From assembly GCA_963791045.1 (NCBI GenBank), contig CAWBQK010000021.1:1-17327 (forward strand): DNA of 17,327 bases, written 5' to 3'. The notes under the pieces were generated by a model that worked only from the letters and a program-made list of their open reading frames with translations, made no database searches and was not told where the DNA came from. Of the stretch, positions 7,649 through 9,916 are shown piece by piece. Position numbers and translations under genes: made by a program. Source of the DNA: Candidatus Latescibacterota bacterium (lineage in GTDB: Bacteria > Krumholzibacteriota > Krumholzibacteriia > WVZY01). Each line of letters starts with the position of its first letter. The stretch's first letter is position 1.

Positions 7649-8296
7649 TTAGCCGTCGTAACGGTGCTTGATCGCGCCCCACGTGGCTCCCTTCACGGGA
7701 ACCTCAGGGATACACTCGTTGGCAAGTGCCGGCGTCGGAACGCATCCGTTCCCCAGCGGCGGCGTCTCACCCGAGTACGGGTTGAGCGCGTCGAAAACGA
7801 TCCACGCGCCCGGCGCGGGCGATGAACGCCCGGCGGCGCGATCGTCGGCGACCTCGTGCGTTAGATACGCGTACGAATCGGCGACGGTTGTATCGCCCCC
7901 CTCAACCCGGTAAAGGTAGACGGTATCCCCGGTATTGTTGAGACTCAGTCCCACGGCGGAGAAACCGTTCTCGGACTGCCACACCTGGGCGGCGGATCCG
8001 TAAACAAGAAGCACATCACCCGGAGCGAGCGAGCCATCAAATCCATATCGCCACGAGTAACCTCCGGAGAGATCGCCGAGCCGATACGCCGACAGGTCGA
8101 TACTCGACGTGCCCGCATTGATGATCTCCACCCATTCGTCCGCGCGACTCCCCACACTGCCGTCACCATCCCAATCCGAAGCGGGATCGGCGACGATCTC
8201 GTTCAAGAGTAGCTGCGCGGAACAATCTGTTGCCGGGATTGCAAACATTAACGCCACGGCCAAAGGAATGGCCGCAAAAAAGGCAACGTATCTCAT
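7649..8296 (-). CDS. Secreted lamin-tail-domain (LTD) protein with C-terminal TWGAIKxxY motif
   Basis: Hydrophobic N-terminal signal (MRYVAFFAAIPLAVALMFAIPATDCSA). LTD hallmarks LLNEI..DP, DEWVEIIN...IDLSAYRL, L.PG...LV, LNNTGDTVYL and PTP. Contains a DWDGDG Ca-binding-like loop and ends ...ATWGAIKHRYDG. The start is probably ATG 8296 (AGGAGG at 8311-8306) rather than GTG 8314. Confidence 0.82.
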   Translation of the reverse strand: MRYVAFFAAIPLAVALMFAIPATDCSAQLLLNEIVADPASDWDGDGSVGSRADEWVEIINAGTSSIDLSAYRLGDLSGGYSWRYGFDGSLAPGDVLLVYGSAAQVWQSENGFSAVGLSLNNTGDTVYLYRVEGGDTTVADSYAYLTHEVADDRAAGRSSPAPGAWIVFDALNPYSGETPPLGNGCVPTPALANECIPEVPVKGATWGAIKHRYDG

Positions 8297-8322
8297 CCTC
8301 ATCATCCTCCTCACATACCCGT

Positions 8323-8342
8323 CCGTTGCCGATGGGGCAGGC
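8323..8342 (-). repeat. Right arm of an inverted repeat flanking the lamin-tail gene
   Basis: CCGTTGCCGATGGGGCAGGC is an inverted copy of 7609-7629. A third partial copy, GCCGATGGGGC, lies at 8479-8489. Confidence 0.6.
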
Positions 8343-8357
8343 TCAAACTAGGAGTAC

Positions 8358-8386
8358 ACGTTACCACGCGCGCCGGGCCATAGCAA
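8358..8386 (-). promoter_or_regulatory. Putative promoter of the lamin-tail gene
   Basis: Minus strand TTGCTA (8386-8381), 17 bp spacer, extended -10 TGG-TAACGT (hexamer 8363-8358). Confidence 0.45.
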
Positions 8387-8436
8387 CAAGCAATTCAAAG
8401 TTGAGCCCGCGCGGGTGGCGGCTCGCGTCCTGGGTT

Positions 8437-8609
8437 GTTGAAGCCTCTCAGCATGACACCCCGCACTTCGCTTCGCTCGCCGATGGGGCCCCCAGAGCGA
8501 GCGAGCGTTCGCGAGCGGACGTGGGCTTACCATTCAGGTCGTTGAAGCTCCTGAGCCAAGCACCCCGCACTTCGCTTCGCTCAGGGTAATCGACGACAGG
8601 ACCCGCGCG
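8437..8609. repeat. REP-like intergenic repeat cluster
   Basis: 42-bp direct repeat at 8437-8478 and 8541-8582 (35/42 identical; perfect 22-bp CACCCCGCACTTCGCTTCGCTC). Hairpin CCTGAGC-C-AAGC...GCTT-C-GCTCAGG at 8550-8585. The segment 8568-8608 recurs inverted at 15495-15535. Confidence 0.7.
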
Positions 8610-8617
8610 CGGTAGGA

Positions 8618-9916
8618 CTAGTCGTTCTTGTAGAGGTCTTTAATGGCGCCCCAGGTTTTCACCTTCGTCGACGTCGTTCCGCATGCGATCGGCATCGCAC
8701 CAATCGTCTCGCACGACGCGCCGTTTGGATGATTTCCCGGCGTGCATGGCGAGTCCGCCTGCAGATAATAATTACCGCTTCCCGGAATCCCGCAGTACTG
8801 CGGATTCGCGATAAAATTACCGCCGCCATTAAACGAACCCGGAGGGAGGAGGTCTCCGCCTGCGTTGTTAAAGAAGCAGCAGCAGCTGATCAGAGGCACC
8901 GAGTCGTTACCCGTGCCCACGCCGTTTCCCGCCGTGCTGTTGGAGAAGATATTCTTTGAAATCGGCGGAGCGGAATAGTTCGTGCAGTAAATCCCACCGC
9001 CACTTCCCGATGTGGCCTCGTTGCTGTCGAACGTATTTCGATCGATCCCGCCGGAGGAGAAGTCGTTATAATAAACGGCTCCGCCAAGAACGGCGCTGTT
9101 TTCTTTGAATAAATTAAGGGTCGTCGAAATACTCGACATCACGCACGCGATCGCCCCGCCATTCCCCGTCGCCGAATTGTTAAAGAACTCGTTCGCATCG
9201 ATCATGCTCGTGGAGTTCTGGTCGCTGAAAATCGCCCCGCCGTCGTTGGTCGCCGTATTGAGTTCGAATACATTTGAAGAGATCGTCGTTCCGGTTTCCC
9301 GGTTGCCAATCGCGCCGCCCGAGAAATTCGCAGTATTGGAGACGAACTCATTGTCCGTAATTGATAGTGACTGTCCCCCCGAGCACCAAATCGCGCCTCC
9401 GTACCCCGAGTTGTTCGAATCAAATGTGTTGTGGGTGAGAACCGCCGTCGATGTGTCGCAGTACACCGCGCCGCCCCGGAATGTGGACTGATTTCCATTA
9501 AAAACGTTTTCCGTAATCGTCGGAGACGAACTGGCGCAGTAAATCGCGCCCCCAAAGCTCGTGTGAAAACCATCCGTTATGGTCAATCGAGACACGACCG
9601 ACCCGGCGCCCTCACCACTTGCAAAAATAAACGCGCGCGCGGCGCCTCCGCAGTCGATTGTGGTCGAAGAGTGGCCCGACGCCGACGTCACAACAATAGA
9701 TTTTCCTTTAAAATCAACGTCTGTGTTTCCCGCGCCTGAAAAGACACCACTATTGAGAAGAACGGTGTCGCCGGGAGAGGCGGCGTCCACCCCCGCCTGA
9801 ATGGTCGCGACATCCCCGCTGCCGTCAAAATTGACGACCCAGGTCTTGGCGAAAACCGACGTAACGGCGAAGATAATAATAGCGCTGATACATATTCCAA
9901 GGGCTGCTTTGCGCAT
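8618..9916 (-). CDS. Secreted right-handed parallel beta-helix protein with Pmp-like (FxxN...GGA[IV]) repeats and C-terminal TWGAIKxxY motif
   Basis: Signal peptide MRKAALGICISAIIIFAVTSVFA; TIQAGVDAASPGDTVLL cap; about 7-8 repeats such as FNGNQSTFRGGAVY, FDSNNSGYGGAIW and FELNTATNDGGAIF; ends KTWGAIKDLYKND. Start set at ATG 9916 (GGGAGGA upstream) because the GTG at 9958 sits at the predicted transcription start. Confidence 0.87.
   Translation of the reverse strand: MRKAALGICISAIIIFAVTSVFAKTWVVNFDGSGDVATIQAGVDAASPGDTVLLNSGVFSGAGNTDVDFKGKSIVVTSASGHSSTTIDCGGAARAFIFASGEGAGSVVSRLTITDGFHTSFGGAIYCASSSPTITENVFNGNQSTFRGGAVYCDTSTAVLTHNTFDSNNSGYGGAIWCSGGQSLSITDNEFVSNTANFSGGAIGNRETGTTISSNVFELNTATNDGGAIFSDQNSTSMIDANEFFNNSATGNGGAIACVMSSISTTLNLFKENSAVLGGAVYYNDFSSGGIDRNTFDSNEATSGSGGGIYCTNYSAPPISKNIFSNSTAGNGVGTGNDSVPLISCCCFFNNAGGDLLPPGSFNGGGNFIANPQYCGIPGSGNYYLQADSPCTPGNHPNGASCETIGAMPIACGTTSTKVKTWGAIKDLYKND

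Follow-up and report, generated by a model that had tools for sequence, protein, structure and literature searches.

Which of its proteins a bacterium displays at the surface is determined by C-terminal sorting signals, and to our knowledge every well-described small signal of this kind consists either of a motif with a membrane helix or of a folded domain of 60-100 residues. In the CTERM-type systems many substrates share one reader, as outlined in excerpts of three accounts (10.1101/2023.06.07.544157; PMC11980579; PMC3237569). The C-terminal domain (CTD) of the secretion system of type IX (T9SS) can be shortened, as in Prevotella intermedia, where according to excerpts of PMC11969387 the short CTDs are still cleaved and glycosylated, with cleavage in the flexible linker before the signal. 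Here we describe a tail of the TWGxIK type that ends two secreted proteins encoded in the window, by which we mean the whole 17.3-kb contig CAWBQK010000021.1 (17,327 nucleotides; C21 in our numbering) of a Candidatus Latescibacterota bacterium (assembly GCA_963791045.1; 3.66 Mb in 21 contigs, rated 81% complete). The tail is strictly C-terminal, occurs proteome-wide, is kept across at least two phyla, is detached from the folds of its carriers and is interchangeable with the sorting domain of the T9SS, and it probably serves as a tag for sorting or anchoring that a dedicated partner reads.

The first of the two carriers is a small lamin-tail-domain (LTD) protein encoded on the minus strand (7649..8314), with an open reading frame (ORF) of 221 amino acids and a likely start at the ATG of 8294-8296, which gives a protein of 215 amino acids in agreement with the database form. 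It matches the Pfam family PF00932 (LTD) over residues 33-150 (E 2.2e-15, 57.4 bits against a cut-off of 34.3). The predicted Sec signal peptide (8216..8296, minus strand) reads MRYVAFFAAIPLAVALMFAIPATDCSA, with putative cleavage before the Q that follows, and corresponds to helix 2-18 in the AlphaFold2 (AF2) model. The protein ends PPLGNGC-VPTPALANE-C-IPEVPVKGA-TWGAIKHRY-DG, so that its tail (7652..7711, minus strand) comprises the linker IPEVPVKGA, the core TWGAIKHRY (7658-7684) and the closing DG. The second carrier, encoded on the same strand (8618..9958, minus strand; ORF of 446 amino acids), is a right-handed beta-helix protein with PMP repeats, which matches PF13229 (Beta_helix; 45.0 bits, cut-off 25.9) and PF02415 (Chlam_PMP/POMP repeats; 45.7 bits, cut-off 20.6) in Pfam and TIGR01376 (64.2 bits, cut-off 15) in NCBIfam. 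Its likely start, M15 (9914-9916), gives 432 amino acids and likewise agrees with the database form. The predicted Sec signal peptide (9848..9916, minus strand), MRKAALGICISAIIIFAVTSVFA, would be cleaved before K, judging from the sequence, and the C-terminus reads HPNGASC-ETIGAMPIA-C-GTTSTKVK-TWGAIKDLY-KND, with a tail (8621..8680, minus strand) made up of the linker GTTSTKVK, the core TWGAIKDLY (8630-8656) and KND.

A preliminary description of this DNA had stated that two proteins of different fold share a TWGAIKxxY ending followed by two or three residues and that both carry Sec-type signal peptides. The ORF translations and domain matches (LTD against beta-helix/PMP repeats) bear out the first statement, and the signal-peptide-like N-termini, from starts that agree with the database forms and with predicted cleavage sites, are in line with the second. 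On the minus-strand reading, four of the five degenerate codons differ between the two TWGAIK copies, as had also been noted: ACG TGG GGC GCG ATC AAG in the LTD gene (7667-7684) against ACC TGG GGC GCC ATT AAA in the beta-helix gene (8639-8656).

Across the six-frame translation of the genome (53,325 ORFs of at least 40 amino acids), the regular expression [ST]WG.[ILVM]K..[YFW] matched 48 times within eight residues of the stop codon and twice elsewhere, the latter two matches lying 10 and 26 residues before the stop. A hidden Markov model (HMM) built from 48 tails found 49 ORFs at E<=0.01, all 49 with the tail within 12 residues of the stop and none with an internal match; one further variant tail, RWGNIKNIYRGD followed directly by the stop, was found at E 0.049. 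At the DNA level, a pattern for the tail matched 47 times in the present genome, compared to 0 matches for the reversed control. The tail recurs far beyond chance. Tail-bearing ORFs make up roughly 1.5% of the ORFs in the genome and their products have a median size of 205 amino acids. Using a crude heuristic of our own based on hydrophobicity and charge, applied identically to all (equally crude) gene calls, signal peptides were assigned to 41 of the 50 carriers and to 1018 of the 3247 other gene calls (Fisher p 3e-13), and several of the nine carriers without a signal peptide look truncated by frame changes.

The consensus of the tail is C-x2-V-P-[TV]-x-[DE]-[ST]-T-W-G-x-[IV]-K-x-L-Y-x(1-4)-stop or, aligned on the tryptophan, C(-11 to -9)-T-V-P-[TV]-[QKE]-[ED]-[TS]-T-W-G-[KA]-[IV]-K-S-L-Y-x-[ED], and W, G and K are invariant across the 48 aligned tails. 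The tyrosine is followed by one (11 tails), two (28), three (5), four (4), ten (1) or 26 (1) residues, which are mostly acidic or polar. A cysteine lies 8-11 residues upstream of W in 34 of the 50 tails; the extended pattern PxGxxC-x9-C proposed in the preliminary description is present in both window proteins, but it does not hold for the tails in general.

No curated model or searchable paper describes the tail. Pfam gave no match on the tail in either window protein or in the 48 other carriers, and a search of the last 40 residues of all 50 carriers against NCBIfam (E<=10) returned matches for three pieces, none of which covered the motif. The absence of an NCBIfam model on the motif, together with the mere one to four residues that follow it, agrees with the earlier view that the tail has no transmembrane helix and is not an LPxTG, PEP-CTERM or GlyGly-CTERM signal. 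In the searchable literature we found no paper describing a TWGxIK-type tail, nothing on type IX secretion or cohesin/dockerin systems in Latescibacteria, and nothing relevant on C-terminal secretion signals of Krumholzibacteria or sorting signals of Eisenbacteria.

The homologues of the window beta-helix protein place the tail in the position of a known sorting domain. Of the best 120 homologues (28-100% identity), 87 carry the tail at their end and 14 a T9SS type A CTD, the latter called from precomputed PF18962/PF13860 matches and ends of the form ...GVYFY...KMVLLK; the remaining 19 have other endings, among them some tails with a longer extension and some truncated proteins. The point of exchange lies directly after the last conserved cysteine. 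Up to this residue, the Krumholzibacteria-titled protein P0264 is 49% identical to the window protein from residue 1, and beyond it P0264 continues for about 100 residues ending in a CTD, compared to the 20-residue tail of the window protein. The same interchange is seen within the present genome, where the body common to four tagged genes on contig C3 recurs at 41-47% identity in a CTD-ended gene (C1:23372-24568), and where the window beta-helix protein resembles two CTD proteins of 1,200-1,300 amino acids. As the tail occupies the same position as the known surface-sorting domain of its relatives, it is most likely an undescribed envelope address tag.

The genome also encodes a T9SS with classical CTDs. 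PF18962 has 77 matches, and a true PorU (C7:200398-203730; 554.7 bits against the NF033707 cut-off of 420) is followed directly by PorV, encoded at L031:1438-2424; in all there are five PorV-like barrel loci and two secretins. The CTDs of this genome are of the form NPFNP...GVYFY...KKMVLLK, and none of these motifs occurs in the tail. PF18962 and TIGR04183 gave no match on the window proteins (E<=1), on the 48 other carriers or on the 50 tail pieces, and the tail, at about 18 residues against about 70-100, is far shorter than a T9SS CTD, as had been maintained before. The idea that the tail is a truncated T9SS CTD was rejected, given the lack of a CTD HMM match and the dissimilarity to the classical CTDs of the genome. 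Separately, we observed that a secretin gene (C18:115908-116399) is followed by a gene (C18:116492-117622) whose untagged product is a paralogue, at 38% identity, of the tagged protein encoded at C11:114198-114902.

The bodies to which the tail is attached are mostly without annotation. Of the 48 other carriers, Pfam recognised domains in six, namely three BACON_2 domains, CHRD, two Beta_helix, CARDB and Temptin_C, and left 42 without any, and the end of a choice-of-anchor W domain (NCBIfam NF041928, E 1.4e-4) lies just N-terminal of one tail. The largest tagged family has 13 paralogues in this genome, with a length of 183 amino acids (e.g. L004:6211-6759), and no Pfam family at E<=0.01. Its AF2 model (65 homologues) has a mean predicted local distance difference test score (pLDDT) of 88.7, and a Foldseek search of the body against the Protein Data Bank returned 31 matches at E<=0.001, nearly all of them cohesins (best match 5n5p_A, E 2.6e-6; target template-modelling score up to 0.67). 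The family is predicted to have the cohesin jelly-roll fold.

The AF2 model of the LTD protein (62 homologues) has a mean pLDDT of 88.0, which falls to 73, 55 and 53 in the last three blocks of ten residues, and shows a short helix (206-211) detached from the domain. In both the LTD and the cohesin-like model the body is confident and the last ~20 residues have a pLDDT of about 50-55, the tail forming a short helix over WGx[IV]Kxx only, detached from the body. Because the tail is a detached, low-pLDDT short helix in both models, it appears to behave as a linear motif on a flexible linker and not as part of a fold.

To follow the tail beyond the present genome (G000), we searched for the DNA pattern WCNTGGGGNNNNRTNAARNNNNNNTWY in 208 species genomes of the window's phylum. 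It was found in 201 of them (0 to 56 per genome), with about 2,700 matches in total against about 10 for the reversed control (0-2 per genome). In a second phylum, which record titles name as Eisenbacteria, a slightly looser pattern was found in 120 of the 121 genomes sampled, with about 2,900 matches compared to 6 in controls; this sample includes the unpublished genome G227, without which the count is 119 of 120. The looser pattern also matched 24 times in an Eisenbacteria chromosome, 64 times in the Latescibacterota-titled bin70 chromosome (G200) and 9 times in a Chitinivibrionia-titled metagenome-assembled genome, each with 0 control matches. The record titles of the closest relatives are Candidatus Latescibacterota and Candidatus Krumholzibacteriia, and the titles bear out the occurrence in Latescibacterota, Krumholzibacteriota and Eisenbacteria that the preliminary description had named.

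Low counts were obtained with the pattern in genera g68 and g80 and in part of f4. The tail HMM found variant tails in all five low-count genomes examined, with at least 10 hits at E<0.01 in G159, so that these genera are not true negatives. One such variant, which lacks the W-G, is the ending NMDQIKAMYR of a G159 (genus g80) protein encoded at L171:8388-9005 (minus strand), upstream of a PorU-like gene discussed below. In the LTD family the tail is kept in 112 of the 120 listed homologues (48-100% identity), and with a lenient regular expression it was found in 72 of 80 LTD-orthologue loci from named genomes. One side observation concerns the Chitinivibrionia-titled genome G210 (locus L155): its PorU is nearest to that of G000 in a quick tree and it has six copies of the cohesin-like family, and for these reasons its label is doubtful.

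The preliminary description had read the tail as a C-terminal tag and had named restriction of the motif to the two window proteins, a lack of enrichment at C-termini or among proteins with signal peptides, and a match to a characterised domain as findings that would speak against this. We found about 50 carriers in this genome and the pattern in 201 of 208 genomes of its phylum and 120 of 121 of a second one, 49 of 49 HMM hits at the C-terminus with signal peptides on 41 of 50 carriers against 1018 of 3247 other gene calls, and no Pfam or NCBIfam model on the motif. All three results support the interpretation as a tag, from which we infer a role in sorting.

Around the tagged genes, at distances of up to 6 kb, Pfam was run on the first 295 of 340 neighbour ORFs. 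Apart from C25 peptidases and many T9SS-CTD proteins, no convincing recurrent neighbour was found among these 295; DUF481 barrels occurred three times and MacB/LolA-like sets twice. C25 peptidases, which have six loci in the genome, stand at two of these beside tandem clusters of tagged genes. One of the two, on contig C3 (L004:11623-15030; PF01364 E 2.8e-58), lies on the same strand as six tagged genes directly upstream. It is a paralogue of PorU, with 24% identity over 961 residues and a CTD of its own, and at 154 bits it falls below the NF033707 cut-off of 420 for PorU. In the present genome the gene is split into overlapping frames (L004:10826-11722 and L004:11623-15030), either by an assembly indel or by a real frameshift, and its orthologues are single ORFs of ~1,360-1,410 amino acids. 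A protein-atlas look-up of the enzyme returned generic C25/PorU clusters only.

The PorU-like enzyme is widespread and distinct from PorU. A match was found in 207 of 208 genomes of the window's phylum, and G159, G145, G016 and the Eisenbacteria genome G208 each have one strong, full-length PorU-like orthologue (259-316 bits) and a weaker match to true PorU (57-64 bits). In a maximum-likelihood tree of 22 C25 proteins, from a quick search and with one row left out, a single branch separates 10 PorU-like from 6 PorU rows, with a Shimodaira-Hasegawa-like approximate likelihood-ratio test (SH-aLRT) support of 99, and the Eisenbacteria genome is represented in both groups. If the remaining C25 proteins are taken as outgroup, this suggests that the two phyla separated after the duplication. 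The columns of the catalytic His and Cys are kept in nine of nine correctly framed PorU-like orthologues, the tenth row being mistranslated in the wrong frame, and the surrounding signatures are Q[SAG]H[MAS]N and [ML]GCH, compared to GHG[SGD] and [FA]SC[TDN] in PorU. By sequence, the C3 paralogue is a member of peptidase family C25 with a conserved catalytic dyad.

In eight of the ten genomes examined, the gene immediately upstream of the PorU-like gene is on the same strand and bears a tail: G000, G199, G206, G207 and G196 of family f1, G016 of family f4, and G145 and G159 of family f9, the last with the variant tail described above. Because of this arrangement, the PorU-like C25 paralogue is the best candidate for the reader of the tail, and the most likely one on the basis of gene order.

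Taking these observations together, we propose the following mechanism. The tail of ~18 residues would consist of a flexible linker, V-P-[TV]-x-[DE]-[ST], which a cysteine close by would often tie to the body, and a nine-residue amphipathic helix, T-W-G-x-[IV]-K-x-L-Y, with one to four free residues and no membrane span. Exposed after export, it would be recognised as a linear motif by one dedicated reader, presumably the PorU-like C25 cysteine peptidase paralogue, which would itself be a T9SS-type surface protein. After cutting within the linker, this enzyme would keep the cargo at the cell surface or attach it there, and the pathway would run alongside the CTD/PorU sortase step in type IX secretion; the outer-membrane route by which tagged cargo would arrive there is likewise a matter of proposal. 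Taken as a whole, that is, as an envelope sorting or anchoring tail together with the PorU-like peptidase as its reader, this statement is offered as a tentative one, with a serious prospect of being right.

Several points weigh against the role given to the peptidase. G200 does not show this adjacency, nor does the Eisenbacteria genome G208, in which two tails are found about 10 kb upstream. The upstream gene is cohesin-like in G016 (hhalign 97.6%) and weakly so in G159 (63%), with a tail-only match in G145, and since the gene order concerns one tagged family, the link may reflect a cohesin/PorU-like module and not tail reading. Among the 295 neighbour ORFs the C25 peptidases amount to three ORFs at two loci. 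Profiling cannot separate the tail from the PorU-like enzyme because both are near-universal in both phyla. In the second phylum, about 30 of the 121 genomes have five pattern hits or fewer, most of them with a strong PorU-like orthologue, and nine genomes have a weak PorU-like match or none, three of these nine with many tails. The tagged proteins have no CTD, which leaves their crossing of the outer membrane unexplained, and two secretins are present in the genome. Finally, cleavage of the tagged proteins is a prediction, and this counts against the proposal as well.

Small secreted Cys-rich proteins with two dockerin-like DxNGDGxVNxxDL segments, recognised by eye, flank the PorU-like gene in G000, G200 and G159. 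Those encoded at L004:4712-5347, L004:15125-15823, L172:5931-6608 (minus strand) and L171:10208-10873 (minus strand) flank tagged cohesin-like and PorU-like genes, and no Pfam match was obtained for them. This arrangement suggests that the dockerin-like proteins and the products of the tagged cohesin-like genes may form a cohesin-dockerin pair. A more far-reaching version of the proposal would be a second sortase-like pathway in these T9SS-bearing phyla (Krumholzibacteriota/Latescibacterota-type and Eisenbacteria), in which an ancient PorU paralogue reads the 18-residue tail, devoid of a membrane helix, instead of the 80-residue CTD and fixes dozens of small proteins to the surface, including single cohesin-like modules that form, with dockerin-like partners, a cellulosome-like display on a diderm envelope; we hold this version possible, with considerable doubt. 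As a further observation, two tagged cohesin-like genes are separated by 79 bp from a second C25 peptidase gene (L002:8787-13595, minus strand, contig C1; 1,603 amino acids, with FG-GAP repeats), which is convergent with them.

The main rival explanation is docking without cleavage, in which the amphipathic helix would plug non-covalently into a common envelope receptor, such as a PorV-like barrel, an S-layer or scaffold protein or a lipoprotein carrier. The invariant W, G and K of the 48 aligned tails point to a defined pocket, and the short, detached helix in both AF2 models would suit a docking peptide. A fixed free carboxylate is evidently not needed, as one to four residues follow the tyrosine and 10 and 26 do so in two proteins, and some homologues have tails with extensions such as ...TWGAIKALYDGGSSPGRGSVPSDAGR; the five PorV-like barrel loci are also in keeping with docking. 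However, no receptor was identified, the scan of 295 neighbours gave no recurrent partner apart from the C25 peptidases, and the cohesin-like family is not universal (none found in G145 and G159, tail only in G208). Overall we regard docking as unlikely. In a related comparison, the cohesin-like family was considered as a universal receptor of the tail and rejected, as it was not found in G145, which has 56 pattern hits, or in G159, and gave a tail-only match in G208.

A second rival takes the tail to be the outer-membrane translocation signal itself, either a minimal T9SS signal for PorV/SprA or a signal for a secretin-type exporter. The replacement of the T9SS CTD by the tail in homologues is compatible with this, as is the presence in the genome of a T9SS with PorU, PorV and 77 CTD matches and of two secretins, and shortened T9SS signals do exist in Prevotella intermedia (PMC11969387, in excerpts). 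According to the same excerpts, however, a sheet of three strands with motifs B, D and E is preserved in those short CTDs (PMC11969387), and the abstract of PMC11285876 describes the immunoglobulin (Ig)-like sandwich as essential. Motifs B, D and E are all absent from the tail, which gives no PF18962/TIGR04183 match and is modelled as a helix, and the CTDs of the genome are classical and unlike it. This makes a translocation signal distinctly improbable.

Still less probable is a third explanation, according to which the invariant lysine would be attached covalently to peptidoglycan or a glycolipid by a transpeptidase, tethering the proteins inside the envelope. Braun's lipoprotein, with its cross-linked C-terminal lysine, offers a parallel, the lysine is invariant in 48 of 48 aligned tails of a C-terminal motif, and many relatives end in ...Y-R or ...Y-K. 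The lysine of the tail, however, lies 4-8 residues from the end and is not terminal, no YkuD-type transpeptidase was found among the 295 neighbours scanned, and the bodies are typical extracellular modules that interchange between the tail and a surface-sorting CTD.

That the tail has no sorting role, being a shared structural cap, a degradation tag or a recombination-spread remnant, would fit its shortness, the low model confidence there and the inferred nature of its function, but is hardly credible for a strictly C-terminal element that sits on unrelated folds, is detached from them in the models, differs at four of five synonymous sites between the window copies, persists in 112 of 120 LTD homologues, with identities as low as 48%, and across two phyla, and is exchanged with a known sorting domain.

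Some further features were noted around the tagged genes. In the window, the spacer that separates the two tagged genes contains a 22-nt direct repeat (8457-8478 and 8561-8582), of which exact copies are also found on contigs C2 and C19 and whose 18-nt core occurs 13 times in the genome; it looks like a small repetitive extragenic palindromic (REP)-like intergenic element. Read from the translations, the contig begins within a tyrosine-recombinase-like gene (3-1025, minus strand) and ends within a gene (15567-17327, minus strand) for a TolB-like PD40 region fused to an outer-membrane barrel ending in F. Elsewhere in the genome, the DUF481 outer-membrane barrel genes within 6 kb of tagged genes are found at L011:4081-4977, L012:1660-3117 (minus strand) and L013:12885-14081.

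With the PorU paralogue, the tail provides a testable candidate enzyme. The DNA pattern is present in nearly all of the 329 genomes searched, which belong to two uncultured phyla that are poorly known although they are common in sediment and soil, and recognition of the tail would annotate thousands of hypothetical proteins as envelope or surface proteins and would give curators a new model for genome annotation. The tagged cohesin-like family, in addition, points to a possible display of the cohesin/dockerin type in Gram-negative bacteria.

Compared with the systems described so far, the tail has no defining feature of the T9SS CTD, of the tripartite CTERM signals or of the beta-signal of outer-membrane beta-barrels. 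The beta-signal has an aromatic as its last residue, whereas the Y/F of the tail is followed by one to four residues and the bodies are soluble. With LPXTG/sortase, PEP-CTERM/exosortase, GlyGly-CTERM/rhombosortase and MYXO-CTERM/myxosortase the tail shares a short motif placed at the very C-terminus of numerous exported proteins that are otherwise unrelated, throughout a lineage; the tripartite signals, however, consist of a motif, a transmembrane helix and a basic cluster in succession, and the tail ends one to four residues past its motif in 48 of 50 cases. ScaE, a cellulosome scaffoldin of Ruminococcus flavefaciens, is anchored by sortase. It resembles the tagged cohesin-like proteins in having a single cohesin and a C-terminal tag, its cohesin (2zf9) is among the Foldseek matches, and the tagged cohesin-like genes stand beside genes for a sortase-like peptidase and dockerin-like small proteins. 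In contrast to ScaE, the host here is diderm, the tag is not LPXTG, and the proteins, cohesin-like by predicted fold, have no Pfam cohesin or dockerin match.

From the T9SS CTD, an Ig-like sandwich of about 70-100 residues, the tail differs in its length of about 18 residues and its loose helix in the models, and in having neither motifs B, D and E nor an HMM match; even the short CTDs of Prevotella intermedia, which retain a sheet of three strands as well as motifs B, D and E, are several times longer according to excerpts of their description. The enzyme near the tails, in turn, scores 154 bits against the PorU cut-off of 420 and falls in its own group of the tree. The likeness to the type A CTD/PorU/PorV system lies elsewhere: in both cases dozens of Sec-exported, mostly surface-type proteins per genome carry a C-terminal signal, in the same genomes; at one and the same junction, homologous bodies have a CTD in some cases and the tail in others; and a PorU paralogue with an intact His/Cys dyad adjoins the tail-bearing genes.

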